The position numbers were made by a program, and so were the translations under genes. A stretch of 60,000 nucleotides of DNA. It comes from Amphiscolops sp. MND2022. Taxonomy: Eukaryota. A model generated the notes under the pieces. The model did no database searches. It was not told the DNA's origin and saw only the letters and a program-made list of their open reading frames with translations. The stretch lies in assembly GCA_964187785.1 (NCBI GenBank), contig OZ076409.1, positions 21,516,001 to 21,576,000 of the forward strand. Reading direction: 5' to 3'. The number at the start of each line of letters is the position of its first letter. Within the stretch, counting starts at the first letter, position 1. Shown in pieces: positions 3,001 through 59,900 of this stretch.

Positions 3001-4523
3001 TAATTAATTAATTGCCCTCTTTTCGTGGGTATTAATTTAATCGCATTCTATCAGGTTATATTAAATTTGACCAACCATCATATTGCTAGTGTTAACTCGA
3101 ATTAGTAAAGATACCATTTGGTTATTACATTTCATTCAAACATAACTTCCTGTTGAATTACAAAGACTGGTTGTTATATCAAAACCTTACAGCAAATCAC
3201 AAGTCGTCATTTACTTACATTTGCAGCATTTTGCTGAACTTCAGTTGCTTAATTTAAGTCACTTCACATAACTCAGCCAAAATCCACGGATTTCATTCCC
3301 TCATTCCAATATCCACTGATTCCCCGTCCTTTAATGTCAAGGCTGTGGCGACTTATTTCGCACTTGGTCTGCTAATTTTTCACAGTTTCCGTCGCAATTC
3401 TTATCTCTGTGAATCAAATATCTATCTTGCTAACTAACTTGTTTTTGCGCTCTTTATCTATCGTAATACATTCACAACCTTGTACATAAAAAGCGTATCA
3501 GTTTCACGCTGGCTAGCCCCCTGGCAAGTTTCCGGTTTGTTCGAAACTTGTGAAACTTACTTGTGAAAACATTCACGAAGCATTGCTGTATCAATATCAT
3601 TGTTTCTGCGCTGAAAACAACATAGCACAATAAATAAAACAAAGCAGCAGTACATTGAGCAGTTTGTACTTTACTTTGTGTTTATATTTACGCCACTTTT
3701 GCAGAACAATCGACAATTGTATTCTCAATCAGTCAAAACTGACATATTTGGTTATAAAACTAGAGCTGCAAGTTTTATCAGGGCCTGAAGTGAGCGACGA
3801 CCCGCGAGTTGTTTTCTGGTCACGCTATCAGCTAACCAATTTTCAATTCCCTTTTTGCCTGTCAATCAGTGTGAAACAGGAAAAAAGTTGACATATTTTT
3901 CATTATTCAGGGAAAAAAGTAGTTTATTTTATGCATCACATCCATCGCTCCAATCATTTGCATTTCAATTTACATCCACTAAAAGTGACTCTACATTACT
4001 TACTATACTTACAATACTTGTTTATCCCCACGGAGGCGGTACTTACTGTGATAGTTAAAAGAACACTCTTTCCCCGATAAATTTCCTCAACCATTCTTTT
4101 TTGCCGTTACACAATAAGTGCTCACAGCGTGTAGTTGCGTGTTTTACAATGAGTTCATTCCCAGCATTTTGAGGCCCCGCCAATGATACTAATCCCGTAA
4201 CTGTCACTTTTATCTTTCCTTGCTATCTCCGCCAATGCCTTCTTAAATTTATGCCAAATCGGGCACAAATCCCGCAACAAACAGTCGCCGACGTCGTAAC
4301 TTGACTGGCCTCAAAAGTAGTCGTAGCCGTAAGAAATCACTTTCCCGGATTTTCCACGGATTGCCGTCAAGATTCCCATACTTATACGACTGCCCTCGTT
4401 TACATACTTGTATTAACAAGGATAATACCATTTATCTCTTGTTTATAACACAATTAAATTTACTTTTGGGCTGAATAAGTTTGAGAGAGTTAGACTGAGA
4501 CTTGCAGATTTGACGAGTTCACG

Positions 4524-22419: not shown

Positions 22420-22738
22420 GGGTTTAACTATGTTTGAACATACATGTTTGAATACAACTACCAGTTGAAATTGTAAATGACGTCCAGAATAGGTATGTTT
22501 TTTTTCGTGCTGGGAAAGTGTCATATGGAGGGCTAAATATAAGATCACATGGTAGTGAATTCCATAATTCAGCACCTGATCCCCAGAAGCATCGTTTTCC
22601 ATAGGTATTAATGGTATTTCTGACTGTCAATTTTCGTTCTCTGGAATTTCTCAGATCGTACTGATCAAGTTGCTGATACCTGACAAGCGGTACCGACAAG
22701 TAAATAGGCACAGGCAAGTCAATATAAAGACGGTACAA
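22420..22738 (-). mobile_element. 3' fragment of CR1/L2-group LINE ORF2 (interrupted by the next LINE)
   Basis: YDLRNSRERKLTVR..TYGKRCFWGSGAELWNSLP is a typical CR1/L2 C-terminus; a matching piece RYKILCFVYRV lies on the other side of the insertion at ~25595-25630. Confidence 0.6.
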
Positions 22739-22740
22739 GT

Positions 22741-25588
22741 AGAAGAAGAAGATATCAATTAACCATCGGGATATGGCGGTACAAATGACCTTCTATCATT
22801 GATTCCAGGACAAAGAAAATAGTATAATAGAATTGACACAGAAGGAAGGCAAGTGCGGATTGCAGGGTTATAAGAATTAATCGATGCTTGCAATTAAGCC
22901 AGCCAACGCGCTTATAACATGCTTGTTTTTACAATTTAGCAAACTAACTCGCGTTTTGTCAAATTTTTGATTTTTAGGCTCCTTAATGAATATCCTTCGG
23001 TGTTCTTGGTATGAGACACAGGAAAATAAGGAATGTGCAGTATCATCGACAACTCTACAAAAGGGACAAATATTGGTTTTGCTCTTATGACTTCTGAATA
23101 ATACTTCGCGTACTTCAAAATCATTCATTAGAACACGTAGCGTTTTGACAGAAGTTTTCCTAGGATATGGTGCTAGCATTTTCATGTTGCTGTTTTTTAC
23201 TTTTAGCCCTGAGTAATTTGAGTACATAAGACATTGCTTTATTTCTCGTTCCCATAAGTGCCTGCAATACTCATCCACCTCCTTCTTAAAAGTACTGACT
23301 GAGGATTGTCTAGCCAATTGTATGTATATTGCCTTAATTTTATCAGGATCACGATTTACAAAGGAAAGTTAGTGTACCAAAAATAATCTCACCATAGTAA
23401 TATGTTGGGGTATGATTGCTAAACTACCTGGGTTTAGAATATCTGCGCTTCTAGCAGTTGAATGTAAAAACATTAAAACTTGACTAGTGTAGAGTAGAGA
23501 AGGAGGCCAAATATTACCTAAAACACTAACTAGGTGTTTTGATACTAGGTAGTTTCTTATCCCAAAAGTAGATTTTTGAACACTCCACCACATCTTGTTC
23601 AGAGATGTCATATTTTGATGAAACCAAATGGTCATACAGTATGTGACACGTGGTTTCACATCTGAATCAAGGATACGTACAGCGTAAAATGGATTTTATC
23701 TTTGCGTTATAATCATACTAGTTTCTTTCCAGAAATTAACCATTGAGGCAGAGATAGTGGAAGCATGTGTTTTGAAACTCAAATCTCGTTCAAGCCATAG
23801 GCCAATTATTTTACTTCTCTCAACAAGTTTATAGTTGGACTGGAATACTTCTTTTGAGGCATTTATATGTTCAGTTTTGTCTTTATTCAGCGTCTGCGTC
23901 CATTTGTATGTATAGTTTTCCGCCTTTTCTAAAGATGTGCTCAAGTTTTCTTTGCTTGAAAACGAAGTACTGTCATCTGCATACTTATATGTTAAGTCCG
24001 CTTCTTGGAGGAAGCCTTCATATAGAATATAAACAAAAGTGGTGACTGTACAGCCCCCCCGAGGTAAACCATTAGGAGGGACAAATGACATTTCGATATA
24101 ATCATTGACTTGCATACTGACTTTCCGATTCGATAAAAAAGATTTAAAGTAGCTAATATTGGACCATTTAGGCCACTGTTTTTTAGCTTGCTTAGCAATA
24201 AAGTTTGACCTACGGGATCAAAAGCTTTCTCTAGATCATATACTGTTGCTATTGGTAAGTTGTTCATTGCTAAGATATCATGATAAAATTTGTATAAGTA
24301 GTGCAAAGTTGATTTGCCATGATGATTGGTGTTCATCAATTTCGAGGATATCTGATGATCTTAGTCTTCTATCTATCACTCGTTCCACTACTTTTCCTAA
24401 GTGGGGTGTAAGTGAAATAGGTCTCCATGAAGAGGGATTAGAATATTCAGTTTTGCCAGATTTTTTAAAGAATTCGACTATGGTTCTATCAAATGGCTAA
24501 ATCCCCATGAAGAATGCACTGTTTACCAAGTGCACACAAATGCTAATGGTGTTAAATTTGAATTTCTTTAATTGTTTAGTTTGAAGGCCATAAGGATCCA
24601 CGCCCTTGTTGTTTGTCTTCATTTTCTTTTTGGCTTGTATAAGTTCATCCATTGTAATACGCATGTTTAGATCATTCTTGGCCTCCTCCTTGTAATAATT
24701 TTCCGCTTTTGATATATCGGATCACTTGAATTTTTTCCGCTTTTGATATATCGGATCACTTGAATTTTTTCCTTTTTTTCGTCAGCTAAAAGATTCCCGA
24801 TGTCATCAGTGGAAGTTTCAACCGGCGCTTCTCGGATTATACCCCTGGGTGATCTGCTTTCATTCGGTGAAAAAATCTAGTATCTGTCCCGAGAAGATTC
24901 GAACACTACTTGTTTTTCACTCTAGTGCTACAACAATTTTTGTTGTTAGGCTATTGTACAATCTTCCCAAGCTTGTTGGTAAAAGTGAACCCCCGTTTGA
25001 TACCGGGGAAATGAGTATAGAGCCTCCGTTTTCGTAATACACTAGAAGAAAGAATATCATCATCTATTGTGCCAGAAATGTATAGTATTTGTTCATCAGG
25101 ATATTCACGATTATCAGTGCAAGTTTCATTTACATTAGTGGGAGGTTTTGCCGAAACTTTGGATGCATAAGAGGGTTTATTAGTTTTAAACGAGGTTACT
25201 AATCTTTTTATATCTTCGATGTCCTTCTTCATTTCTTGATTGTTAGACACACACTTGAGACGATCATCCACATTGTCCAGAAACCAACCACAGAACCACC
25301 TGCAGGCATCGATCTCTCTGATGACTTTTAATTGCTTCTTGGACAAACCCGATCATTCTTCATGAAACCATATAGAGCACATATCACACATTATTGCTAA
25401 TTGCAAATTTAGGACCTCCACATCACACGTCTTGCAAATGCTTTGCGATGCCTCGTATTTTGTTGTACATTCTGCATTGTGATTCCCCCCGTCATCCTCG
25501 GCCGATCTCTGAAATCCACTAGAGCATCTTATCGGCACACCACCAAATCTCATCTAGTAATTAAGTTTATCAAAACAAATAGGCTTAT
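22741..25588 (-). mobile_element. APE-type LINE copy A (PHD ORF1; internally deleted, decayed)
   Basis: Reverse complement of 28646-33189: PHD finger, RT motifs (DLEKAFD, YKYADD), C-terminal CPFC..H..C, (CTT)n tail; ~1.7 kb of ORF1-APE is missing at ~24700; possible TSD TACAAGTA/TACAATTA. Confidence 0.9.
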
Positions 25589-28645: not shown

Positions 28646-31600
28646 ACAGCCTAATTGTTGTGATAACTTTAATAAATAGATGAGATATGGTGGTGTGCCG
28701 ATAAGAAGAAGCCCCAGTGGATTTCAGAGATCGGCCGAAGTTGACGGGGGGGGAATCACAATGCAGAATGTATAACAAAAGACGAGGCTTCGCAAAGCAT
28801 TTGCAAGAAGTGTGATGTGGAGGTCCTAAATGGGCAATTAGCAATAATGTGTGATATGTGCTCTACATGGTTTCATGAAGAATGTTCGGGTTTGTCCAAG
28901 AAGCAATTAAATTTCATCAGAGAGATCGATGCCTGCAAGAGGTTCTGTGGATGGTGTCTGGACAATGTGGCTGACAGTCTCAAGTGTGTGTCTAACAATC
29001 TAGAAATGAAGAAGGACAGCGAAGATTTAAAAAAATTAGTAACCTCATTTAATACCAATAAAACCCTCTTATGCATCCAAAGTTTCAGGAAAACCTCCCA
29101 CTAATGTGAAAGACACTTGCACTGATAATCGTAAATATCCTGATGAACAAACACTATATATTTCTGGCACAATAGATAATGATATTCTTTCTTCTAGTGT
29201 ATTACAAAAACGGAGGCTGTATACTAGTTTCCCCGGTATCAAACTGGATTTCATTTTTACCAACAAGCTCGGGAAGATTGAACTATTATTTAACAACAAA
29301 GACTGTTGCACTAGAGTGAAAAACAAATGGTGTTCGAATCTTCTCGGTACATATACTAGATTTTTTCACCGAATGAAAGCAGATCACACAGGAGTATAAT
29401 CCGAGATGTGCCGGTTGAAATTTCCACTGATGACATCAAAAATGTTTTAGCTGGCGAAAAAGAGGATGAACTTCAAGTGATCCGATATAACAAAGGCGGA
29501 AAGGCCATACCTTTAGTGGAACTAGTTTTCCAGAAAGAATGCACATTCAACAAAAATCTTCAAAATGGAATTACGCTAGAGTATATGTACTTCAAGATGG
29601 ACCCAAAACGTACCACCAAACGGATTATTCAATGTTTCAACTGTCAACAATGGGGTAGTCATGTATCCAAAATTTGTAAAAACCAATCGTGGTGTGCCAT
29701 CTGTGGCTACGAGCATCCAATAAACAGTCATAAAGAAAATGAATGCCAGGGAAAACATGAACATACAAAAGATTGTATCCCACCAAATGAAATCTATTGT
29801 GTGAATTGCGGCAAGGATCACATAGCTTTTGACAAAAACTGCGAAATGTACCAGGAAATGTGGAAAAAGTTGAACAGAGTCAACTCGTGATGAAACAATT
29901 TCTCTTAGCCATGACTATAAACATTGCTGGTCTCTCCGCTCACTCGTGTATTGCTATGGATAAATATATAAACGACAACAACATAAACGGTATTACGATC
30001 TCTGAAAGTCATGGAAAATTTCAGGGTTTTGGTAACTACGATGTCCACCGTGCCCATTCAAACAAACTTGGTTGCTCCTTGCTCATACACAAACACTTAA
30101 ATTCCTATGAAGTGAAAAGAACACCCAGAGAAGGCGTTGATTGCTGTTTTGCAGCAATCTCTATTGAAAAGAGGAAATTTTTGCTGGGATCAATATACGT
30201 ACATTTAGGAAACACTGAAAACATCGAAAGCGCCACAGATGTTCTGACTGAAGTGTATACGTTATGCAAAAACGAAAATATAACCGGACCAATAATCTTC
30301 GGGGATTGGAATTCGAGGCATCCACTATGGGGCGATGAATTAGAAAATAAATATGGTAATTTACTTGCCGACTACTGTGCCGACAATAGACTTTCTATAA
30401 TAAGCCCTCACCAGCCCACTTTTGTCTCAGCAAGCAAGAAAGGTAGCAGCATAATCGATTTTTGCATCACTGAACAAAAGTGCTCTGATCTGGTATGCAA
30501 TGCACGAGTGATCGAAGACTTCGAATTCTTCTCTGGTGCTCCAGAGCAAGGTCATTGGCCTGTTCTATTTGATATAGATATTCCTGTGAAACATGATAAT
30601 CCTATACGGTGTGTGCTAAACTACAAAATGGCAAATTAGAAAGAAATAAGTATCCAACTGGAAAATAATATGGTGGAAAACATGGATAGCATGATAACGG
30701 AGGGCACCTACGAAAGTTCTCCTAATGTTTATGGACCTAGTGAGAGGAGTTTGTGAAAATTCGATTCAACGGAAAACACTCTGTAAACATTTCAAACCAT
30801 ACTGGAGCAATAAATTGACTCATTTATCGCAAAAATTGAAAGATGCGCGCAAAAACTATAGACTCCAATGTCGGAACCCGAAAAACAAGAACATTGTTGA
30901 ATTAGCTAAAACCGAATTCAAAAAGGAAATGAAAAAGTATATTACCTGTTGGACGCAAAATGGCATCATGGAATTGAATGAGGGAAGCTCTAAAACACTT
31001 TTTGATAATATCCGCAAATTCAATGATTCAATGGACTTAAATGACATAGGAGTAGTTCGTCACAAGGGTAAGACACTGGAAAAGGATTGCTATAAAGCTG
31101 CGCGCTTTCAACGTATTTTCTTCGATAGTGCACACCTTCCTGGTAAACTATTTGACACGCTTTCTATGAAAGAAAAAACAAAAGTAGAAGTGAAAGAGAA
31201 GTTGACTCACACCTTTGTGGATTATTACAAGGAGTAGGTCAATATGATCTAAACATGCGTATTACAATGGATGAACGTAAACAAGCCATAAAGAAAGTGA
31301 AGACAAACAACAAGGGCGTTGATCCTTATGGCCTTCACCCTAAACTATTAAAGAAATTCGAATTTATCACCATTAGCATATGTTTGCACTTTGTAAACAG
31401 TGCATTCTTCTTGGGGATTTGGCATTCGATAAAACCATAGTCAAATTCTTGGAAAAGTCTGGCAAAACTGATTATTCTAATCCATCTTCATGGAGACCTA
31501 CTTCACTTACATCCCATTTAGGAAAAGTAGTTGAACAAGTGATAGAAAACTAAGATCATCAGTATTTCTCGACATTGATGATCATCAGTATTCCTCGACA

Positions 31601-33189
31601 TTGATGATCAACAATTTGGTTTTCAGCCAGGCAAGTCAACTTTGCACTACTTATACAAATTATATCATGATATCTTAGCAATGAAAAATTTACCAATAGC
31701 AACAGTAAATGATCTAGAGAAAGCTTTCAATTCCGTAGATCAAACTTTTTGCTAAGCAAGCTAATAAACAGTGGTTTAAATGGTCCAATGTTAGCTACTA
31801 TAAAGTCTTTTTTACCGAATCGGAACGTCAGTATCCAAGTCAATGATTATATCGACATGTCATTTGTCCCTCCTAATGGTTTACCTCAGGGGGCTGTACT
31901 GTCACCACTTTTCTTTATATTTTATATGAAGGGCTTCCTCCATGATGCGGACTTAACATATAAGTATGCAGATGACAGTACTTCTCTTTCAAGCAAAGAA
32001 AACTTAAGCAGATCTTTAGAAAAGGCAGAAATTTATACATACAAATGGAGGCAGGTGCTGGATAGAGACAAAACTGAACATATAAATGCCTCAAAATAAG
32101 TATTTCAGTCCAACTATAAACTTGTTGAGAGAAGTAAAATAATTGGCCTATGGCTTGAACGAGATTTGAGTTTCAAAACACATGCTTCCACTAACTCTGC
32201 CTCAATGGTTAATTTCTGGAAAGAAACTAGTATACTTATAACGCAAAGATAAAATCCATTTTACGCTGTACGTATCCTTGATTCAGATGTGAAACCACGT
32301 GTCACATACTGTATGACTATTTGGTTTCATCAAAATATGACATCTCTGGACAAGATGTGGTGGAGTGTTCATAAATCTATCTTTGGGATAAGAAACTACC
32401 AAGTATCGAAACACGTAGTTTGGCCTCCTTCTCTACTCTACACTAATCAAGTAATAATGTTTCTACATTCAACTGCTAGAAGTGCAGATACTCTAAACCC
32501 AGGTGGTTTAGCAATTATACACCAACAGATTTATATTGTGAGATTATTTTTGGTACACTAACTTTCCTTTGTAAATCGTGATCCCGATGATATTAAGCAA
32601 TATACATACATTATGCTAGACAATCCTCAGTCAGTACTTTTGAGAAGGAGGTGGATGAGTAATGCAGGCACTCATGGCAAAGAGAAATAAAGCAAGGTCT
32701 AATGTACTCAAATTACTCAGGGCTCTAAGTAAAAAACAGCATCATGAAAATGCTTGCGCCATATCCCAGGAAAGTTTCTGTCAAAATGCTACGTTATCTG
32801 ATAAAAGATTTTGGAGTAGCGAAGTATTATTCAGAAGTCATAAGAGCAAAACCAATATTTGTCCCTTTTGTAGAGTTGTCGATGATACTGCACATTTCTT
32901 ATTTTCCCGTGTCTCATACCAAGAACACCGAAAGAATTTCATTGATCTTCAAAATCAAAACGTTGAGGAAACGCTAGTTGGTTTGCTAAATTGCGAAAAC
33001 AAGCATGGTATAAATGCGTTGGCTGGCTTTATTGCAAGCATCGAATAATTCCTATAACCATGCAATCCTCACTTGCCTTCCTTCTGTGTCAATTCTATTT
33101 GTACTATTTACTTTGTGCTGGAATCAATGATAGAGAGTCATTTGTACTGCCACATTCCGAAGGTTAATTGATCTCTTTTTCTTCTTCTT
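28646..33189 (+). mobile_element. APE-type LINE copy B, near full length but decayed: ORF1 (PHD + 3 CCHC knuckles), ORF2 (APE, RT, C-terminal CCHC)
   Basis: CDMCSTWFHEECSGL (PHD); CFNCQQWGSH..C, CAICGYEH, CVNCGKDH..C; GDWNSRH, SIIDF (APE); GLPQGAVLSPLFF, YKYADD (RT); (CTT)n tail; TATC on both sides; many stops and frameshifts. Confidence 0.92.
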
Positions 33190-34518: not shown

Positions 34519-34899
34519 CGAATTTATAGACAACGGATACATTTTTCAACCGGTGGCCTTGGAAGTACATGGTTCTTTAGGCGAGAGCAGTGAAATTTTC
34601 ATCACTCGTCTCTGTAAAATGCTCTGTCGTTCGTACGACGATCAACGAGCTGGCAGCGGATTTCAATGGCTCTTCAGATCGGCAATGCGGCCTGTGTTCT
34701 AGGAACTGTGAGAGACAGAGATGCGTTCGAAGAAATTTATTACATATAGTTTTTTAATACTCTCTTTTAGTTACTCTATAGTTTATTAACCTCTCTATAG
34801 TTTTTACTCTATAGTTTTTTTAACCTCTCTTAATAATTACAGCTTTTAAAAGAATTACCGGTCGACTGCTATAGTGGCTGGTATGAGTAGTTTGTTGGT

Positions 34900-37430
34900 T
34901 GTTGTTTTTTGTTACTGTCTTCGGTCCTAAATCATTTTGCACTAAATGTTTGTTGCCCAACGATTCCAACAAGAGTAGGCAAAACCTCTGAAACTCACAT
35001 CGATTATATAATAATGGAAAATGTTCAAAATTCGTTTGTGTTTGACATACCCTTCAAAACAGACCATTTCGCTTCAATACTTTTTAGTAGTGAGAAGAAG
35101 AGAGATAGAAAACCAATAGAAAAAATGGTTTTTGATAAATCCAGGTTCAATAGGGATGAATTTCGCACAACTTTAAGATCTCTGGATTGGGACCTAATGT
35201 ATAATCAATGTAATGCCGATTCTATGTTGTACACTTTTATTTCTCTATTAAGTGGAGCTTTGAAGCAGCACGCTCCTTTAAAGAAAGTTTTTATCCGTAC
35301 TCAAAAACCAAAAAAAAACACCTTAAGTCAGAATGGTTCGACCATGAATGTAAATGCCTGCTACAAAAAAGAACAATAGCTCTTAAACGTTACCAACGCC
35401 AAACTTCTGCTATAAATTGGGAGAAATACAAAACATTGAGAGCAGAGTTTTCGGAACTAATAGCTAAAAAGCAATCTGAATACAGCTTGAACTTATTGGA
35501 AACCTTCAAATCGTCCAGAAAAACATGGAATTTTATCAACAACCTACGCAATACAAAAAGTGAAAACTCGCGAATATCGGCACTAATGAATTCTTTCGGA
35601 GATTTAATTACCGAAGACAAAAAGATTGCGAACCTACTGAACTATACATTTTCACACCTAGGTGATTACTACGGAAGAAAATTACCAAATAACATTGAAA
35701 GCAAAACTACACCTAAATTGTTTAGTTTCCGACCAACCACCATCAAAGAAGTCTTCGATGCAGTAAAATCGTTGAAAATCAATAAACCCCTAGGAACATG
35801 CTCGATACCAACATGGGCTTTTAAAGACGGAATGACTGAAATTGTACCACATCTCACAATGGTTATAAATGAATACATTAAAAAACAAAAATTTCCCTCA
35901 ATTTTGAAGAAAGGTCTCATTACACCTTTATATAAAAAAGATGACCCACTAAACCCTTTGAACTACAGACCCATTACAATAACGAGCAGTTTGTCAAAAA
36001 TATTTGAAAAACTTTTGCATTAACAAATTAATCAAAACCTATCATCAAATAAACTTTTGTCTCCTCTTCAATTTGGCTTCCGTGAGAAAACATCAACACA
36101 AGATGCTCTCATTTATTTCACCGAATCGATCCGTAAACATGTTGACGAAAACGATACTATTTATAGAGTATGTATAGATCTTTCAAAAGCATTCGATTCC
36201 GTCTCCCATCAATTTTTGTTGGAAAAATTGAACTTAATAGGCTTCAATATTGATGCTTTGGAACTAAATTTTAGCTTTTTATCACACAGAAGCCAACAAG
36301 TTGTCATCAATAATACGGTATCCGACATCACCGAAACATATCAAGGTGTACCGCAAGGAACAGTACTTGGACCATTACTTTTTAACATCTACATAAACGA
36401 TATTACAAAATACATCTCGGAAGAGTGCAGAATTATCCAATACGCCGATGACTGTTTGATATACTCAGCGAATCCAAAACCTGACATTGCATTTGAGAAT
36501 TTACAAATCTGTCTTGAAAAACTAGAAAATTATTTTCGGTCAAATCAGGTAACCCTGAATGCTTCTTAAACAGAATTCATACGTTTCTCAACACCAAAAT
36601 TAACCGTATCCAATAGTCAACTTATAGTTGCTGGTTCCAATATAAAACTTAAGAATGAAGTAAAGTTTTTAGGCATTATCATCGACAATAAACTAAGTTT
36701 CGAATATCAAGTTAAAAGTGTGCTTAAAAAAATGGCCCTTGGCATAAAAGCAATTCAAACAATACGCAACAACCTACCCAAAAAATGTTTAAAAGTGCTG
36801 CTTCATGCTCTCGTCCTAAGTCATTTTGAATATTGTAACCTTCTAACGGACATCAGTAGTGCTCTTTTACTTTCTTTAGAGAAACAACTGAATTGGGCTC
36901 TTAGAACCGTGTTCTACAGATCTAGAAACAAATGCTCAACCTCTTCGAGAATATCTGAAGAAATTTTAAGTATGAAACAAAGAAATGACTTGAAATCATT
37001 TGACTTATTATATTCGATTCTCAAAAACGAAAGGTCAGCTTTTCAGAATCATCTTAAACTCCCAACAATGAGTTTTCGAATTAAGGAAAGAAACAAAAAA
37101 ATAATATTGAAAGAGCCTGGTTCCAGTAAGTTTCTTCATGGATCCTTCTTTTATACCTGTGTGAGAAGTTGGAATTCCTTACCCACTGAACTGAGAACAA
37201 TCAAATACAAGAGAGAAAAATGGAAGAAACTTATCAAAGAACACATGATACAACTTTACAAAGATTGTCCAACTTTTTATAAAAACCATATTTGGCACGG
37301 CTTCCAACTTCTCCAATAGTTCAACAGTGCTACTTTATTTTAACTTCATTTCAATTACTACGCCTACTGTACCAAATAAGTTGTTTCTTTTTTATAAGGT
37401 ATAGTAATTAAGCGTCTTTCTCTCTCTCTC
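34900..37430 (+). mobile_element. CR1/L2-group LINE, 5'-truncated ORF2 (end of APE + RT)
   Basis: PTRV..SETHIDYI, TDHF, NYRPITI, QFGFR, IDLSKAFDSVSH, GVPQGTVLGPLLFNIYIND, QYADD, RSWNSLP; (TC)n near 37420; internal stops. Confidence 0.9.
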
Positions 37431-44500: not shown

Positions 44501-47500
44501 ACCACCATTTTCACGCCGATCCTCGTTGGCATGTGAAATGTTTTCTAGGAAATGGAGGAATCTGAAGAATTGATGAAGGAAGAATTGCGATCGCTTTTGG
44601 CTGATTGTGAAAAACAGAAGCAAGAGAATGAAAGACTGAAGACGTTGATTTCTGAAGAGAGTGCCCCTCTGGTTGATGAACAAGTTGGCAGTTTTTGCAG
44701 CGACGAAGGTAAGGTCTCTATCTGAATTATAGGTTTCGAAGTACTTTCCCATTGAAAAAAGTCTCATCAAAATACAACAGATCTCATCGAATGTCTAAAA
44801 TCCCAAGCTAGTTACTGTAGTACTCATGTTATTCTGGTGTCTTTATTTTTCTATAAAGCTTTCAATTTTGAACGGTATTTGAACACTTCCAATGTTATAT
44901 TTTGATGTTTTGAATCAAAGAAAAAATCGGGGAAAAAACTGACACATTATCGAAAAAATGCAAAACCAATATAATCAAATTTTGAATTATATTAGTTATT
45001 CTTCTAGTTGGCTTTGGAAAGATAAAATCGGCATTGTTTAGATCCGAAAAGTCGTCTGCTGCATGTCGCAATGAAAAAAATGCTTGATATCCGAAATAAA
45101 ACGTTGTATCCGAATTATATCACGTTTCCAATATTACAATGAGTCTGGTCAAGTATGCAGATCAAAAAATTAGTTCTGAGCGAGATTCGAAGCCCCGACG
45201 TGCTAGCGAAGCATGCATCCTAACCAATGAAAAGTACACTGGAGCTTATCTTTGTAACAGGATGCTTCACTGAAGACTCAACGTGAGGTCGGTGTAATCA
45301 GCAGGTTGCTTCTTTCTATCTCGTTTGAGCTCTTGCTGACCTTTTAGAGAACTTTGCGAAGGAGACTTTGAGCCAGTTGAAGGAAACAAACCGTGCTCTG
45401 AGGCAGCAACTGGCCCTGTGTGAAACTGAGCTGGAGGAAGAGAAAGATAAGAACGAAGAGGTGAAACATCCTTTCCTCGTAGTTTGTTTGGTCATTTCAT
45501 GAATCATTGGCAGCAGCCAGTTTAGTTGAAGTTCAGCTATTCAGGTCTTAAAATACACTATGGTAGCAAAAAGCGACGTACAGCTGAAAATTAAATCTTA
45601 TTCAGTTTGTGAAGAACTTTTCATTTTCATTCTCAACCGGAAGTGAAATCAATCACTCTTGAATTAAACATTGTTGAAAATGGTCAAACCTTTGGATTCA
45701 TACGTTGTTTGCAAAATCGTTACACTTCGCGAAATGGGTTTATCATACAAAGGAATTAAAGAAAAGTTGGGTCTTAAATCTCGATCGACAGCTCAAACAG
45801 CTTATCAGCGTTTTTTGAGAACGAACTCTTATGTGGCGAAAAAACCTCCAGGCCGGCCAGAAAAGCTCAGCGAAAAAGAGCAAAGAATAATAGTTCGAAG
45901 AGTGGAAAAGGACCTAAAAACAACATTAGAACGAGTAAGAGTACTGCAAAACTCTTTTTCAACGTCACAGACAGTTTCTAAATGTACTATTCGAAAAATC
46001 CTGAAGAAGTGCGGAATGGTTTCTAGAAAAGCCGCAAAAAAGTTCAACTTGAACAAAAAACAAAGACTGATCAAAAAGCGCTGGTGCTCGAGAATGTTGA
46101 AAAAGCCCCTTGGTTTTTTATCCAGCGTCAATTTTCCACCGAAATGGGAAAAAGTTTTGGAATTTTTTGAAAAAAAAATACTTGAGAAAAATCTCAAAGT
46201 GCCGAAAAAACCAGAACGAAATAAAAAATTTTATCAAATCAATCACTTTCGTAGAGTGAACTAATAGCGCTTTCGATGGTGCGCTCAATGATACAAGACG
46301 AGATTATCTAAAGTCGGCGCTAAACCTAAGGCTCAAAAAGCGCAAAGTATAGAAACTCTGCTCAGGATTTTTATGAAATGACAAAAAACACCAAAAGATT
46401 ATAACGTTTGAAAGATGACCTTTTAGTTTTGTTCGGTTTTGTATGTTACGCTAAAAAAGAGAGAAAATGAGAGAGGGGACCTTCTGCACTACCTTAGATG
46501 CATTTTCGCCGGCCAGATTTGGGTGGTATTGTAAGCTTGAAGAAGGTTGATTTTGTTTCACTCGAACTTTTGCATTTTTGTTCTGAATTTTGGCTGGATG
46601 GAAACTAGGTTTCTGGGAAAACGTCGTTCGTATTCTCAGACAAAACCCGTGTGCGCTTGAATAGTGATGGCGTTGTGCGGGTGTTCAGGAAAACTGGTCG
46701 TCGCTTTTGCCCCAAAAACACCCAAGGAATACACACGGACAAAAGAATTATGATGTTTTGGGGGGCAATCAGGTCAGATGGTACGAAAATGCTAATTAAA
46801 TGTCCCGCAACACTTAACAGGTACGGTTATTTGGAGATTTTAAAGCAATACGGTCGACATTTGAATATACCGGATTTGGTGTTCCAGCAAGACAACGCCC
46901 TAGTACACAAAAGTGAAGTTGTTCGCAATTTTCTGACCCGAAAGCAATGGGAGGTGCTGGATTGGCCAGCTTACAGTCCTGACCTGAATCCTATTTAAAA
47001 TATTTGGGCCATTTTAAAAAAAAGCTTGCGAGGTCAGATTGTTACCTGGGAGAATTTAGAAGAAAAGGTTATGGAAGTGTGGAACAACATAAACCCTGAT
47101 GTTGTTCGCAACTTGTACTCATCGTATGAGAATCGTCTCGTGAAGGTAAACAAAGTCCATGGTAGTTTGACGGGATATTGATTCATTATTTGTTTCAACA
47201 GTTGTTTCAAATTTTACTCTGTTCTGTGTTTTTTTTAAAAAAATGTTGGTGTACGTAGCTTTTTGGTACCATAGTGTATGTTCGGAGAAAGTAAAAAATC
47301 ATATGCGTTAATCATCCACTATCAATCTTTTTACTAGTCTTTGGGCGATCTTGAAGAAATTCCTCTATAGCGAATTTTTTGCACATGACGAAGTCAATGT
47401 GCATTGCAGTCCAGCTAAGAAAGTTTTTTTTCCACAATAGTCAACTTCATAATGAGCGCTTTTTAGAATAAAGCCAAAACCCCAGAGAGATTCGAACCTG

Positions 47501-50500: not shown

Positions 50501-53500
50501 TTTTACGAATAATGAAAAATACGAATTAACGGATGGTATTACTTTGGTCGTCGAATGGTGGTGTCAGATACATACAAATTAAACAAGTTCCGGATACAAA
50601 CTACCGGAGTTGACTGTATTTGCTTCTCATACGTTACTTTATGAATATCGACAAATGGTTTCTACTACCTTTTCCATCATAAAAGCGTTATATTCAATAC
50701 CTTGAACATTTCACCTCTACAAAATGCTTTGACGTTTGGAATACTCCCTGAAGATATACAAACGGTCTGTTATTAGCAGCAGTTTGAGATTGAGGCTTAG
50801 ATTTTAAATTACTTCGCCTGAGACTTGTATGACTTTTCATAACCTGTTGAGTGCAATTTTTTAATTGCAGAATCTCCTCGACGAGCTGAATAAAGCTATT
50901 GCTTCTGACTCGTTGGAAGAAAATGAATTTTTGCTTCGGCCTCATCTGTCTACTCTGAAGGAGGAGCCATCAGTTGAGATCGAAGACATGGGGACGGACG
51001 AGGAGGGTGATGTTCCTAAAGACGAGGCCACAAATCTTTCAGAAACGCCTGATGCGAAAACAACTGAAGTTTCAGAACCAACGACCGCTAATGAAGAAAC
51101 CTCAACTTCTGAAAGTAAAATTGTTCAGCTTGAGAACAATTCATCTGAAAATGGAGACATTCGTGTTGTTAATCATCCTTATGGGAATTATTCAAGCTAT
51201 GATGAAAATCATTTCATGTCTAGTGACGACTCATCGTCTAATCATGTCACCTGTGCTTCAGAAATAGCCGATGTTGTCAAAACATCATCTTTAGAGGGTA
51301 GAAATTTTGTTCTTGAACAATCATCCAAGAATGAATCTGAAGTTTCGGATGATATTTTAATCGAAAATTCGTCAACGGACGCTGAGAACTCTTCAATTTC
51401 AGGAAAATCACCCATAGCGCTATTTGTACTGTCTGAGGTTCAAAAGTTTGATGTAAATTCATTGCCAGAGAACCAAGGAGAAAATCTTCGAGAAGAATCA
51501 ACTGAAAAAGATAGTAGTCAAATGGATCCTTTATCTGCTGAAGTTGATTCAAAGGAGGTTGTTCAAAACTCGGTGCTAAGGAAAACGAATTTAGAAAACA
51601 ATGATTTCTCTGAACAATTTAATTTTGACATCGAAATTTCACTGTTGGAAAATATCGCAAATAATGATCTCAATCTATCGGCTGCTAAAATTTCGTGTTC
51701 TGGTGAATCAGCTGAAAATTCTTCAGTTGAAGTGCAGCATTTTACTCCTAGAAGTAACTTCGAAACCTCTGAATTACCGCAATCGGGAAGCATATGTGAA
51801 AACAAAGACGTCGGTGAATATTCTCCAATCATTCACCAGACAGTATCGAGTGAATCGAGCGTTGATTTTTCTTCTAGAGTTGAAATATCGAATTCAGTGA
51901 ATAATCCTTTTCAAAATGCGTCAGCTCTAGATGCGACTAGTAATATTGATGCTACAACGGCCAATCTTGATAGTTATCTGAAAACTGAAAGGGCAACGGT
52001 GAAAGTCACAGATCCCTTTGATATTGCAACGTTTGACGTCGATGCTTCGTTGCCGGATAACGAACTTTGTAGTAGTCCAAATGATGTCTCTGTGACCGCA
52101 ATATTTGATGTAGACGACGCTGTTTGTCGAATTGACTCAAACAAAGTCAATGAGAAAGGAGCAGTCATTATAACGCTCCCATGTCAATATTCAGCTGACG
52201 AGAACATTAGAGCTCGCAACAATTCCTCGATAGGTCTCCGGAAAATTTTCAAGCGATCTTCTAAAAAGTCCAAATCACGGCAATCATCTGTCAGAAAGAC
52301 TGAATCATATGAATTAGCCAATGTCTCTATGAAATCCTCATGTTTGGGATCAACTCATGTACAAAATCAATCATCCAAATCTGATATAATGGAAAGCAGA
52401 AAAACAATAAGTGAGAATGATCGTTTTGGTCTAGACAAGTCCATAATCGAACAGCAAAGCGAGGACGCTAATGGTGATTCGGCCAATGACGTTCAGTCTA
52501 CGAAGTTGTTGATACCCGATGACAATGAAATGAGGGCAGCTCGAGGCCTGAGATCAGCTACCATGTCATCGGTGGAAAGCGCAGACACTGAAAGTGGTAG
52601 CGTGGGAGTCGGAGAAGTCACTGTATCCAAGATGAAGATGTCGAGACAAGCGTCACGGGAGACCCGTTACAGGGTGAACTACAGTAAATCGATATCGCAT
52701 CGGAGGAAAACGGTGATGGAAGGGTTGCGTGAAGAGAAGTCCGTAGATGGTGAAATGGGAGATATCGTTGGGAAAGGAATCGTGCACCAGACAACTGCTG
52801 ATATTGTGCAGGAGTCTGATTTGAGGAAACAGAAACGATCCGATTTTTACAAGCAACAGGACGTCCAAGTCAAAACTGTTAGTTCAAAAGTTCGGTATAC
52901 TTACCATCAGAGTTTTGACATCGCTACTTTTTCTCGCTAAAAACAGCTAATTTCAAAATCGCTATTTCGCTGAAAAACTTTTCTTCAAACTATCAAATGT
53001 TTTAAAGTAAATAACTCAATTCAATTTTTGCAAGAAAAAACTAGAATTTTTCTTACTGTGTTGGTTTTACAAGAATAAAAATTGGAATTTTCGAAATGCT
53101 GAAACCATGTATTTTCCGAGGACTTTTTGAACTTGGACAGTCAAATTCGGAATTTGAACCGCGGATTAGCGGCGTCAAAACTGCTTACCATCCTAATAAA
53201 AACATGAATCTAGTCTCATAATGACAAGTCATTCATTTGTCACGATATCATGGAACAAGCCGGGAACGGCATAAGTCGGCGCCATATCTGAGGCTCAAAA
53301 ATAGTAAAAGGTCTTCGAGGTGTCAAGTATTCTCTTTTACAGTACCCGAAAAACCCAAAAGTTGGACCGAATTGGCGCACCGGGAGCCCGATAGCGTGTG
53401 CCCCTGGCGCGCTAAAAGGGAGGACCCTTTCGGATTTTTTAACATCCATTCTGTTACAAAATATCAAAAAATTGAAGGGGGACCCTTTGGAGAAAAAGTT

Positions 53501-54516
53501 TTCAAGTCTCAATGCCGTAAAAAATGTTCGGCATACATGAATTTTACAGACGGCTCCTGTCACGCGATAAATGAAATACTCAATATGCGAAACCTTAATA
53601 AATACTGAATTCTGAGTTTTATAAAGGTTGTATTCAAAAGCAAGTGTGATGTGGATTTGAAAATGTAAAAACTTCAGTTTCGGTTGCACTTTTTATGTAA
53701 AAATTCTTGCACACTGAGTAAATTTCGAAACGATTTTCTTGATATGAAGGTGCCCATGTTGTTTAGGATAAACCGATAGACCTTAGTGCGCTTGGAGAGA
53801 AGAGACAACAAGTGATGGATGAGAAGTACACTGAAGACGGCTTCCTCAAGATTGACCCCAAGGACCCCAACCGGCCGAGGTACACCAAGGCAGAACTGCT
53901 TCAGGTCATCCGTGAAAAGGCTGATCTGAATCTACAGAAAATGTACTTGGAGGAGGAGCTTGAACTTGTGAAGTAAGTTGAAATCATACGGTGGCTACCT
54001 TTTGATCTCAATTTTTAACCTCTTACGCTGTAAAATGTCATGTTTTCAGGGAGCAGCTGAAACAATTGCAGCAGTCCCATACTCAGACCCAAAAGAGACT
54101 GGCTCAAGCTAATGAGAGAAGATCTATCCGCAAGCTGTAAGTTGTTGACTCATTTGCTCACTAATTTTAGTAAGAGTGATCTGTTCTGATGAAATGATAC
54201 TCGTTGCAGGTTCGGAATATTCAGACACAGGCATTCGCATCCCAATGCCAATAATTTGGCCATGAGTAGTGGCAAGGCGTCATACTCGGCGTCGGCAGAT
54301 TTCAGCGACGCTAAGTTGCCTGCGCAAAGGAGACCTTCGTGTGACTCCGTGACCTTCGACACCACAGGAGCTGTATCGAGTAATGGCAAGCACAGCAGAA
54401 GTGTGAGACCTCCTTCGTGGGTCACCAGAACTGGGCCTAAGTACGATAACCGAGAGAGCTCAGTGACACTCGTTGTCCCTTCGTCACCGCCCCCACCCAG
54501 AGACACGGAGTTTTGA
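38525..54516 (+). CDS. RILPL1: RILP-like protein (RH1 and RH2 domains) with very long central insert, ~1305 aa
   Basis: Phase-compatible exons join(38525-38659,44122-44153,44317-44476,44549-44708,45348-45460,47792-47977,48367-48498,49737-49829,49910-50029,50103-50270,50871-52889,53767-53972,54050-54136,54210-54516). RH1-like LITLDEIYKLAKKISEDFDEF..NIITALEQ plus coiled coil; RH2 IDPKDPNRPRYTKAELLQVIREKADLNLQKMYLEEEL; SIRKLFGIF resembles the RILPL C-terminal motif. Confidence 0.85.
38899..39925. repeat. Tandem duplication, two ~525 bp units
   Basis: TCATCTTACGCATCATCTGTGATTTG starts at ~38899 and ~39425; the units are nearly identical, with a short deletion in the second. Confidence 0.9.
40000..42040 (-). 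mobile_element. Second CRE-like non-LTR retrotransposon, internally deleted, with N-terminal PHD-like finger
   Basis: WCAVCNYVHTKCSG..FVCVRC; GSHGPSGVDANEWRR, KNPGVRPIGV; TEDEARLNIKANGLW..AFFNVKIFNP (REL endonuclease); YIRTKINCALYRNCVQCLRG. Confidence 0.8.
45172..45230 (-). mobile_element. Degenerate tRNA-like SINE fragment
   Basis: Minus strand TTGGTTAGGATG...GGGGCTTCGAATCTCG, A/B-box-like. Confidence 0.4.
45556..47276 (+). mobile_element. Tc1 (DD34E-type) DNA transposon, inactivated
   Basis: TIR CACTATGGTAGCAAAAAGCGACGTACA / TGTACGTAGCTTTTTGGTACCATAGTG with TA TSD; HTH with GRPEKLS; FSDKT, FQQDNA, WPAYSPDLNPI*; catalytic E codon is now TAA; ~490 bp insertion at ~46115-46605. Confidence 0.92.
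47481..47549 (-). mobile_element. tRNA-derived SINE head (or tRNA pseudogene)
   Basis: Minus strand GTCCCTATGGCACAGTGGTC...GGTTCGAATCTCTCTGGG contains pol III A and B boxes; acceptor and anticodon stems pair poorly. Confidence 0.6.
49058..49495. mobile_element. hAT-like MITE
   Basis: TIR CAGGGCTGTTCA/TGAACAGCCCTG; perfect 8-bp TSD TCAGAAAC. Confidence 0.85.
50871..52889 (+). CDS. RILPL1: Giant acidic/Ser-rich exon of the RILPL gene
   Basis: 2019-nt open frame, TTGCAG acceptor ending 50870, GT at 52890, phase 0-0. Confidence 0.75.
53767..53972 (+). CDS. RILPL1: RILPL exon encoding the RH2 (Rab-binding) domain
   Basis: DPKDPNRPRYT..EL..V..E.....K..LEEEL; AG 53765-66, GTAAGT 53973. Confidence 0.9.
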
Positions 54517-55180: not shown

Positions 55181-55628
55181 GTCAGTGCTATTATTGGATC
55201 AAGAAGGTTTTTCGAATATCGACACTGAACTGATCTGTCTGAAGCGTTCTGTGCTGATCCATTGACCTAACAATGATATTTCTTACTTCCAAGCCAATCA
55301 AGTTTGTTCAACGGTCTATTTCAACTCTTTCAGTATTAGAAGAATGCATGCTATTTTTTTCTGGCACAAATTGCCTATTTTTGCGCTTTAGGCTTCGTAA
55401 TGGTTTCAAAATCATGAGAATTTTCCTTTGATCAATGAAATCTAATATTTCTAACGCTGAAATGAAATTCTACACTGAGGCTGAAAATTCGTTTCGATTT
55501 GTACAGCAACTGGATCAGACTATAAGTTTAGCAACCGTGACTATTGTTGCTAAATTGATGCACAGAAGCTAGCTATTTTTACTATTTCGGATGTGTGGAC
55601 GGTTGTCTTGAAAGTCTAAATTTACTTC

Positions 55629-55885
55629 GTTTAGTTATTCGCTAGAGATTGTTCTTGTTTGTAAAAATTAGTTTCAGTTTGAAATACTTTAGATTAAAGA
55701 GTAAGAAAGTCCGACTAACATGGCTGGTAGTTGTAGCGATTGTGTTGGTAAACTGGGTCAAAAAATTAACTGCAACTTGTCAACTGGCACGGGTCAGACG
55801 GGCGGCAACAGGTTAGTAATATTTAATTAAACAGGCCCCGGAAGGTTTAAGTTTGTGTTGAGATTCGAGGGAAATTTGGGGAAGA
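55629..55885 (-). repeat. Diverged direct copy of LTR-element internal segment 56686-56941
   Basis: Colinear ~255 bp match (GTTTAGTTATT..GCTAGAGATT ... GAGATTCGAGGGAAAT..GGGGAAG) with scattered substitutions. Confidence 0.85.
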
Positions 55886-56184: not shown

Positions 56185-56850
56185 AATGCCCCCTCCCTGT
56201 GGCTTGCGTCCTCGTAAGGTTAGGTGGATGGATGAAAAAGGACCATTAACTGCGGGTAAACTGTTGGTCCTTGGGGGAAGGCGAGTTGAATCCGGGTTTC
56301 TTGAGGTACAGTCCCCACACGTATGGTCGCTATCTAGTAGGAAGCGAAGGCCACAATGATCGTATACACGACCCAATGTTGGAATACTGAGAACTCGTTT
56401 GATTGCTGTGATGAGGGGGACTAAGCGCGCGGCATCTTGTACCTGTGGATTGTCATAGGAGGTCAAAGTTTTAACGGGAGGTGAGAATCGGAGCAGTGTT
56501 TTAGCATGCAAAGCAACTGTGTCGTCGGAGGCGGAAGGTGTGCAGCATAGAAAATGGTAGAAAATAGTACAAGGTGTTGATGTGGTATAAAAATCTATGG
56601 GCAACGAGAGCGAATGTCCTCTGATTAAGGACAAAAGGGCACGGGAACTGCCATTATCTGTGTGGGCTAACCTACTGCGTAAATCGTTTAGTTATTTGCT
56701 AGAGATTTTTCTTGTTTGTAAAAATTAGTTTAAGTTCGAAATACATTTGATTAAAGAGTAAGAAAGTCCAACTAACATGGCTGGTAGTTGTAGCGATTGT
56801 GTTAATAAACTGGGTCAAAGAATTACCTGCAACTTGACAACTGGCACGGG

Positions 56851-57174
56851 TCAGACGGGCGGCAACAGGTTAATAATATTTTTTTGAACAGGCCCCGGAG
56901 GGTTTAAGTTTGGGTTGAGATTCGAGGGAAATCCGGGGAAGTCGGAAATTTCCTCAATTTTTGTTAGGGAATCAGCCATGAGGCTGTTATGAGTGCTGTT
57001 GAGATCTGTTTGGGCAGTGCGCAAGTCCTCAATACGTTTCTGCAGGATGTTCTCTGTCTGAAGTGCTTTTAATTGAGAGTAGGCTTCCAGAAAGCCTTCG
57101 TGCAGTTTGGAGCACTCCCTGCGGGCATCGTTGAAAGCCCTCTCCAAATGCTCGACGGAGCTAAAATCCGTCAT
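56851..57174 (-). CDS. Putative accessory coiled-coil protein of the LTR element (107 aa)
   Basis: ATG-initiated open frame with heptad-like segment and Pro/Asn-rich end; its ATG overlaps the stop of the upstream ORF (TAATG). Confidence 0.45.
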   Translation of the reverse strand: MTDFSSVEHLERAFNDARRECSKLHEGFLEAYSQLKALQTENILQKRIEDLRTAQTDLNSTHNSLMADSLTKIEEISDFPGFPSNLNPNLNPPGPVQKNIINLLPPV

Positions 57175-57657
57175 TAAGTTGCACTATTCGTCCATGGCGT
57201 CTTGTTTGATAAGGTTTGCTTGTACTTTCGGGGCACTGGGTCTAGGCAAAAGCAGTTGTTAGTGGGCAGGTCGACTTCGGCGACGGACTCAGCAGTAAGC
57301 GGAGGCGTGACCCAGAGTTTGTTGAGGAAACGACGAAAGGGAGAGCGATTATCGTTCACCTTCTGTAAGGGACAAGTACGGCCATCCGGGAAGAGTTTCT
57401 TTGATATAGCGGGTATACTCGACTAGGTGAACCATGTCACCGACACCAACTGGAGCGACGCGGTCAAAGCAGGTGACCACTGGGGTCTTGGAAGCAGCCG
57501 GGGCCAAGAGTATACCTAAGAGACCAAAAAAGGGAGGTAACAAAGACTAGGGGTATCCTACTAAAAAGCATGGAAACATGCGAAGAGCAGGACAGTCGTC
57601 CAGGGTTTTCAAATAGAAGGTGAACACTGAGCATCATCATCAGATGAAGAATAAAAG

Positions 57658-57925
57658 CGCAACGTAAAAGTACGTGCGTTTGCATCACACGAGGTGACTA
57701 CTATGCGGAGTATGAACGTGGAAACACGTTCCGGGGCATCACACAAGGTGAAGAATAATTGTCAATGAACGCGGAAACACGTTCAAGGGCATCACTTGAA
57801 GTGAGATTTGGTTAATTGAACGCGGAAGCACGTTCGAGAGCATCACATAGAGTGAAGATGTGTTTGCAATGAACGCGGAAACACGTTCGAAAGCATCACT
57901 TCAAGTGACGATTTGTTGGATTAAT
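57658..57925 (-). repeat. Array of five ~52 bp double-hairpin units
   Basis: TGAACGYGGAARCACGTTC-N4-GCATCAC-N5-GTGA at 57713, 57766, 57817, 57870, plus a diverged unit at ~57658. Confidence 0.9.
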
Positions 57926-58027
57926 GATGTGAGTGTTATTGTGCTGTTGAATCGTTATAAATAGGTGCGCTAATAGGAGGGTAAACACGGTTAGGAAGTG
58001 TGGGGGGATGTGTTGAATTTTCATGCG

Positions 58028-59900
58028 TTAGAGAAGAAGTAAGACGCTTAGTGGTTGCATAGAAGCGTTGAAAGTCGAAAGTTGAACAGGTTGTCGTAAC
58101 GTTTCTTGTGCGAGTTTCTGCAAAGCATGGAACTCAGTGACGGAAAGATAAAGGAAAGATGAATCATCACCATGAGGCCGCTGAGAAGAGTCACCTATGA
58201 TGTGCAGAAAACGTACATCACGGTGAGGATGGGAGAGCATGCGTTGTCATTATCGACGAAAGAGGGTGAAACTGACACAAAAGGTTAACAATGAGATGGT
58301 AATAGACGTGAGAGAACAGAACGGCTGTTTTTGTAGGTAGATAGGATGACAACGCAGCAAAAGTAGCAGGAGAAATATACGAGTAGTATTGAGCATTGGG
58401 TCGTGTTAGTTCGTCCTATGACGAGCGATGACATGATACATGCAATCTGCTAGGTAAAAAGCTTGCGGAGCATCCGGTAAAAGAACAGATTCCACTTTAC
58501 AGTTACGATTAGATGCGACATCATAGTTATGAAAAAGATAAACAATTGTATCATCAGAAGTAGTAGAAAAACTTTTGCGGCACAGTTTAATACGGGTATT
58601 ACCAGAGCATTGTTGCAATGTTGACGCTCCAAGTTCTGCAAACTGTGGATTATCTGTAGAAATGGGTAAAAAAGTCTTTGCAAGCTGATATAAAGAAGCA
58701 GTGAGATCGTCGTTAGGTTGGTACAAAGAAGTGGCGTGATAAACGTTAAAAGTAGAAGACTTAGAGTTCATGGGAACACCAAGGACAACTGAAATGCTAG
58801 TAGTTAAAAGTGAGACTTCCAAAACCATATTTGTTTCATAACAGACAGCTTCCTGTCCAACACGGATTGCCGGAGAAAGTTTTGTGCCACGGAGAATCTC
58901 ATCATAGGCCAGTTCTCGGACTATGGAGGCAAATTGGTCGGGGAGTAAAATCTGTGGTTTAACATCCAGCGGAAAGGGATGAAATTGTGGAAAAAAGGAA
59001 ATTTTTAGGCGTAAAATGCCGCTCGAAGACTTTTTACGTGCGTGTACAAGTGTCCTAACTGTCCAATGTAATCACGAATTTGCTGCGCGATGACCACGTT
59101 CCGGGTTATATGTGAATAGCCATCATGTAGAGTAGACAAGGTTTCTTTTATGTTGAGAATATCATTCTCGAGGGTTTTGAGGTGAGTACCCACAACTTTT
59201 TATCTTTGCAACACTTTCGTGAGTGCTTTTTATCTCATTTCCCAATAGGAAGAAATTTCTGTCATTCTTCGTTTGCACTCTCGTCAGAGTGTCTTGCAGT
59301 GCCTGCTGGTTTCTCATTATATTGCGAACATCAGCCTCAAGGGTTTATTTTCAGTGCAAAGGCTAAAAATTGAGAGTGCTGAATATGCAGCCTCTTTGAC
59401 TGGGTCACCTAACTCCTGCGGCTGCCACTCTTAGACCAAGGGCTCTTTTTCCTCTATGGTCCACGTTTTGGGGTTCCTGTGACAGAAACGATTTTGCCAC
59501 CCGGAGTAACTCCGTTTTATTGTATTTCCTGCTCCAGTAGAGGCAGTTTCGCTTCTTATTCGTTGAACAAGAGTTCAAAGGCATCCTCATCCTGGCCGTT
59601 TTGCATAACTTGACAGTTTCCATTCTGGTGAGCGTATTAGAGTGTCCTCTAGTCTGCAGTATGGTGTGGGCATCTGTCAAGTTGATTGCCGGAATCTCAG
59701 GGAATGGCGAAAACACTCGAACTTTGCTTTCACTTTCCGAAGTGACAGCTTGACATTTGTAGACAAACGCGGCTCCTTTCTTGAAGACCGGTGTTTTGTC
59801 CTTATTGATGTTGGTGTCGTATTGCACGCCATAGGAGCTCAAGACTAGACGGCAGAATACGAGAAGGGGGATGAAGGAATATTAAGTCAAAGTAGACATT
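58028..59900 (-). pseudogene. env: env-like class I fusion glycoprotein (errantivirus/baculovirus F-like organisation), frameshifted
   Basis: Hydrophobic leader LIFLHPLLVFCRLVLS; furin-like RGKR|ALGLRVAAAG; heptads (DVRNIMRNQQALQDTLTRV, LKTLENDILNIKETL); Cys-rich ectodomain (LQQCSG..KLCRK..NCKV); TM-like LTSITISLLTFCVSFTLFRR at ~58255-58315; cytoplasmic tail. Confidence 0.75.

Follow-up and report, generated by a model that had tools for sequence, protein, structure and literature searches.

Tandem UUUC-loop hairpins between env and a J-domain gene of a decayed retrovirus-like element: a candidate sense-strand RNA signal

Just 3' of the env gene of a decayed, retrovirus-like element in the genome of Amphiscolops sp. 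MND2022 lies a tandem array of small hairpins that is very probably a selected RNA structure of some function. The array was analyzed within a stretch of 60,000 nucleotides (contig OZ076409.1, positions 21,516,001 to 21,576,000), referred to here as the window, and all coordinates are positions within it unless otherwise indicated. The hairpins carry a fixed apex on exchangeable stems and occur as four to six sense-strand repeats, and for these reasons we infer a multivalent protein-binding signal, which by analogy may help to export the element's intron-retaining RNA or to stabilize it; we hold this more specific reading tentatively, at somewhat less than an even chance. For the question of how the env-bearing gypsy elements of invertebrates bring intron-retaining RNA out of the nucleus and balance their mRNAs, the locus supplies a candidate signal that is small, modular and naturally covarying, together with a candidate partner encoded by the element.

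The env gene occupies 57937 to 59881 of the minus strand and is broken by stops and frameshifts, with a furin-like basic site near 59440; it was traced by tblastn of an intact relative (P0136), which covers 59866 to 57939 in several frames. Searches found 135 longer env relatives (the env clusters hold 141 and 188 database sequences); a basic site and a hydrophobic peptide are present. With matches listed at E values up to 1, Baculo_F was matched by 3 of 24 relatives (best E 5.4e-07) and Fusion_gly by 1 of 24. These family matches are weak, so that the F type is a likely assignment for the env protein and no more; a structure model of one relative (P0025) had a pLDDT of 42.8, too poor for a structural search. 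On the upstream side the window reaches only about 120 nt beyond env, and pol and the 5' LTR fall outside it. Because relatives (L004 and P0144) carry integrase domains directly upstream of env, the locus fits a decayed Ty3/gypsy-like element of the env-carrying, retrovirus-like kind. Scans of viral and prokaryote contigs returned no env relatives.

On the other side of the array, the minus strand holds a fourth gene, ORF4 (56220 to 57480; tblastn of P0218, P0217 and P0221), with regions for an SH3-like barrel, a coiled coil, a J-domain and a Cys-rich tail. The original prediction had pointed to several small ORFs downstream of the array, and these turn out to be fragments of this one gene, as judged by tblastn and by the ORF4 relatives. 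The window copy is interrupted by frameshifts, stops and a foreign segment of 258 nt (56684 to 56941), and has no intact HPD motif. The foreign segment, with a second copy (92%) at 55627-55884, outside the element, is possibly a small non-autonomous repeat. About 25 nt past the end of ORF4, a purine run at 56186 to 56197 (minus strand), recognized by inspection, is a putative polypurine tract that would precede a 3' LTR. In the window and in two related elements, L001 and L002, env is followed by a spacer and then by ORF4, with ORF4 at 2517-3350 and 1414-1641 of those loci, respectively.

What kind of protein did ORF4 encode? When clustered at 50%, the matches to one unbroken piece of the gene came to 30 representatives, of which a few are false; P0188, P0212 and P0213 look like repeat-rich false matches. 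The nearest relative (P0185) is 75% identical, and in its model an SH3-like barrel (about residues 31-83, pLDDT 86-95) is joined by a long coiled coil and by a J-domain. The HPD motif is present in 31 of the 48 family proteins (P0188 and P0212-P0214 left out), and Pfam DnaJ scores above its cut-off in the ORF4 of L001 (38.8 bits), in P0154 and in P0211, and below it in the others. Structural matches of the J-domain have Z scores of 8.0-8.8, including Ydj1 (Z 8.3, rmsd 2.4, 72 residues aligned). By the Pfam and structural matches and the HPD count together, the domain predicted from sequence and model qualifies as a J-domain. The barrel is less specific: for residues 33-83, chromo, KOW and Tudor domains are tied at Z 5.9-6.1 (46-52 residues aligned), the closest structural matches have an rmsd of 1.3-1.8, and the best Atlas score is 0.77. 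A scan of viral contigs contained no ORF4. For an env-bearing family of this abundance, a fourth gene with a J-domain is noteworthy in its own right.

The array itself (57658 to 57908, minus strand) begins about 25 nt beyond the end of env homology (~57939) and comprises five units of 51-54 nt. In sense-strand order, each unit consists of a 4-bp hairpin, UCAC-N5-GUGA (hairpin A), which the trinucleotide UGC and 3-4 variable bases separate from a 7-bp hairpin whose loop is YUUY (hairpin B). The loop of hairpin B is UUUC in unit 5 (57871 to 57888, the first in sense order), unit 3 (57767 to 57784) and unit 2 (57714 to 57731), and CUUC in unit 4 (57818 to 57835), while unit 1 (57658 to 57678) carries a variant with a CUUU loop, an A-U closing pair and a bulged stem. 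The original prediction of five units just 3' of env is borne out by spacing, motif count, shuffled controls and Tandem Repeats Finder (TRF: period 53, 3.9 copies, 76% matches), and the N5 loops are as it listed them. It erred in describing a strict 53/51 alternation, since the start-to-start spacing over 57661-57908 is 54, 53, 51 and 53, and it overlooked a sixth hairpin with the same loop, which stands alone on another 5-bp stem at 57568-57581. The sequence GCATCAC-N5-GTGA occurs 5 times in the 60-kb window, each time within the array; none of 100 shuffled controls reached 5, even with one mismatch permitted. Contig scans with two array patterns likewise gave no match.

Folding supports a structure on the sense strand. 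The z score of the array is -6.18 for the minus strand and -3.88 for the plus strand, and for each strand none of 200 shuffles folded equally well. The five UUUC-type hairpins closed by a G-C pair have closing-pair probabilities of 0.72-0.98, the sixth, stand-alone hairpin being at 0.98, and the hairpins are predicted to fold independently. Hairpin A behaves differently from one unit to another, with pair probabilities of 0.0-0.99 that vary with the unit and the folding span, and shows no variation in sequence between units. It is weak and invariant; it may serve as an additional site peculiar to the subfamily, or may act through its sequence instead of as a hairpin. A hammerhead-like CUGAUGA...GAAA arrangement near 57630-57610 was dismissed by eye; no stem leads into the GAAA, and Rfam gave no match.

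If the array had simply decayed after duplication, paired and unpaired positions should have drifted alike. In the four close units, as had been noted, the paired columns are nearly fixed and the others vary: 1 of 22 paired columns is variable versus 15 of 19 others (Fisher p 8e-7), and pairwise identity is 0.98 in paired versus 0.45 in unpaired columns. Neutral decay after duplication is therefore unlikely. Because the stems are so nearly fixed, covariation does not reach significance when the array is taken by itself, with 103 of 500 shuffles as high.

A test beyond the array is given by comparison between elements. Of the four related loci that the one metagenome scan turned up, two, L001 and L002, extend into the spacer. 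The env segments of L002 are 68-72% identical to the window env at the DNA level, and blastn of the L002 spacer against the window spacer gives no match. The L002 spacer nevertheless displays the RYG-UUUC-CRY core on four hairpins whose stems differ from those of the window; three of these stems are uninterrupted, with 6-7 bp, and one is bulged. Four YG-UUUC-CR sites fall within its 317 nt, against a shuffle mean of 0.14 and with 4 reached in none of 5000 shuffles, for an 8-nt core that was narrowed after L002 had been inspected and a motif known as DNA from two elements only. In the window element and L002 together, 8 of 10 such 8-mer sites have a stem of at least 5 bp (of the other two, one is the bulged hairpin and one falls within ORF4), versus 27 of 518 in unrelated DNA, for which 124 viral loci matching a loose three-motif pattern were used, in this role only.

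Nine hairpins from the window and L002 can be aligned, unit 1 being left out. In this alignment 88.9% of the cells are paired and 5 of the 7 pairs change on both sides. Covariation reaches 0.571, a value seen in none of 500 shuffles and compared with at most 0.26 in slid controls, for a set in which four hairpins are near-identical duplicates rather than independent cases and in which kinship among the sequences can by itself beat a shuffle control. Covariation was thus found across the nine hairpins and not within the array alone. The lower stem is variable, whereas the closing pair is G-C in all nine; the pair adjoining it is U·G in five hairpins, C-G in two and U-A in two. These G·U pairs fit the sense strand only, as had been noticed for the minus strand of the window, and the sense strand folds better than the antisense strand in both motif-bearing elements.

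The claim of a selected, sense-strand, multimeric RNA 3' of env is thus upheld by the fold z score, by the stem-biased conservation and by L002. The double hairpin as a conserved module is not: of the two hairpins L002 has just the UUUC one, and TCAC-N5-GTGA was found in none of the four related loci, of which L001 and L002 alone reach the spacer, and is missing from L002. The spacer of L001 (env 46%) has no motif site. Because L001 keeps env and ORF4 without the motif, the motif is not family-wide. The L001 spacer has a fold z score of -1.63. Hairpins of its own are present at 2325-2450 of that locus, two of which share a stem and differ in their loops. There is a weak hint of the sixth hairpin in a third element: the first four residues of an extra N-terminus in P0217 are those of the translated sixth-hairpin region.

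How might such hairpins act? In the mechanism that we consider most plausible, the fixed RYG-UUUC-CRY apex, displayed on exchangeable sense-strand stems between env and ORF4, would be read by a protein that recognizes the loop together with three apical pairs, and the number of hairpins would supply avidity. The genomic and env RNAs would retain the array, while an ORF4 mRNA starting, or spliced in, 3' of the array would be without it. Candidate binders are a host factor, as for a constitutive transport element (CTE), or ORF4 itself, in the manner of Rev. The suggestion of an export-type function comes from the position between env and the 3' end, which matches that of retroelement export elements; those of the MTE type usually sit between env and the 3' LTR (PMC4588558, in the part available). 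The MPMV CTE, the MusD MTE, the RSV direct repeats and the HIV RRE, as portrayed in the accessible portions of PMC4588558 and PMC7551171, are likewise structured non-coding sense-strand elements 3' of or within env, and the present array also lies 3' of env on the sense strand, ahead of a putative 3' LTR. They differ from it in design: the known CTEs and RREs are single structures (PMC7551171, same portion), either a long stem interrupted by internal loops or a branched fold of 234-400 nt, whereas here small hairpins that keep a fixed UUUC apex are strung together, 4-6 of them in a row. A sequence-structure match to a described family of this kind was not found in Rfam, where the best E values for the array (2.1 and 2.8) are at chance level and none reaches the gathering score, in keeping with the earlier failure to recognize a described motif.

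A more elaborate version, in which ORF4 completes a Rev/RRE-like circuit evolved within an invertebrate gypsy lineage, is a long shot. Here the barrel would bind the UUUC hairpins, the coiled coil would multimerize along the array, and the J-domain would recruit Hsp70, which would remodel the unspliced RNA or export it. If true, this would amount to regulation of the complex-retrovirus type, with a chaperone effector, outside the Retroviridae. The barrel of L001, the element that has ORF4 and no motif, is without the basic PF(R/K)R stretch found in most other listed barrels; as a single case in sequence data, this is a lead only.

Among the alternatives to a protein-binding export or stability signal, the best survivor is a translation element, which would direct internal entry or reinitiation after env so that ORF4 is made from env or genomic RNA. 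The array fills the gap between env and ORF4, the ORF4 of L002 has its own in-frame ATG ~80 nt past the last hairpin, and several intact relatives have called starts 3 to 6 codons ahead of a conserved F-R motif. On the other hand, L001 has ORF4 and lacks the motif, the database starts may be non-ATG choices of the gene caller, and in each of the two elements that carry the motif the hairpins are separated from ORF4 by acceptor-like sites. We give this explanation a minor, though real, chance.

It is less easy to see the array as a packaging or dimerization signal read by Gag, which we consider quite unlikely. Retroviral packaging signals typically hold repeated tetraloop hairpins, as this array does, and identical units can pair with each other, as units 5 and 3 do in the global fold. 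However, env mRNA would presumably carry the array too, so that genomic RNA would not be singled out, and the loops are pyrimidine-rich and lack self-complementarity.

A function in limiting use of a splice acceptor before ORF4 seems a shade less probable again. The window has two splice-acceptor-like sites (a pyrimidine run followed by AG) within 57516 to 57575 on the minus strand, ending at 57561 and 57516, and such a site falls within ~7 nt after the sixth hairpin here and ~30 nt after the last hairpin of L002. These sites are weak, however, and frequent in spacers of this kind (2, 4 and 3 in the three spacers). Because they are so common, and because the L002 ORF4 has its own ATG, the acceptors and splicing into ORF4 are only putative.

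Could the repeats instead act as DNA, as an internal promoter or enhancer for ORF4 with repeated GGAAA-type factor sites? The other strand of the motif does contain GGAAA, and the Tor elements of Oikopleura have an internal promoter for env (PMC4402516, in the part available). A double-stranded site, however, needs neither two-sided changes in the outer arms nor G·U pairs on the sense strand, and we regard this explanation as very unlikely. Least probable is a neutral tandem duplication: the units did arise by duplication and the element copy has decayed, but the excess identity of paired columns and the reappearance of the apex in L002, where the stems are different, largely refute a local minisatellite.

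A selected protein-binding RNA signal thus remains our preferred reading, and known systems offer partial parallels. The histone 3' stem-loop, the SLBP site, shares a four-base loop of the UUUC/CUUC type on a short stem. According to the available part of PMC4604434, the top pair of the histone stem is U-A and its basal G-C pairs do not vary, whereas the hairpins described here have G-C at the top in all nine aligned cases (A-U in unit 1, outside the alignment), the lower stem is variable, and Rfam gives no match; identity with the histone stem-loop was accordingly rejected. The 'errantiviruses', env-carrying Ty3/gypsy elements with an F-type env (PMC13524379), share the order integrase then env, a furin-like site and weak F-family matches with this element, which differs in its J-domain fourth gene and in the hairpin array after env. 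In the portion of PMC13524379 at hand, the text contains 'DnaJ', 'stem-loop' and 'acoel' 0 times, and seven supplements contain DnaJ, ORF4 and four acoel taxon names 0 times. Bdelloid LTR retrotransposons are gypsy-like elements whose 3' part likewise holds captured genes other than env, but their extra ORFs encode a GDSL esterase, a DEDDy nuclease or a dUTPase, as opposed to the J-domain protein here; 'DnaJ', 'J-domain' and 'hairpin' occur 0 times in the accessible part of that paper (PMC5408684). Searches of the open literature yielded neither a description of the hairpin motif nor one of an env-bearing gypsy element with a J-domain gene, and the four-gene element with its hairpin array is apparently undescribed.

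The rest of the window contains several other features. A teneurin-like host gene lies at 6484-15808 on the plus strand, with matches to EGF_TEN, TTR_TEN and RHS repeats. Two degraded, inverted copies of an element of LINE-type appearance occupy 22737-25585 and 28648-33189, with arms 87-96% identical, and a further RT-like stretch is found at 34891-37319. Inverted repeats of 33 nt at 45550-47282 surround a transposase-like ORF (45668-46264), and this unit is probably a Tc1/mariner-type remnant. Finally, at 50988-53976 on the plus strand, a 650-aa acidic low-complexity exon (no Pfam match) is followed by a short downstream exon that, in our estimation, resembles a RILP-like C-terminal domain.
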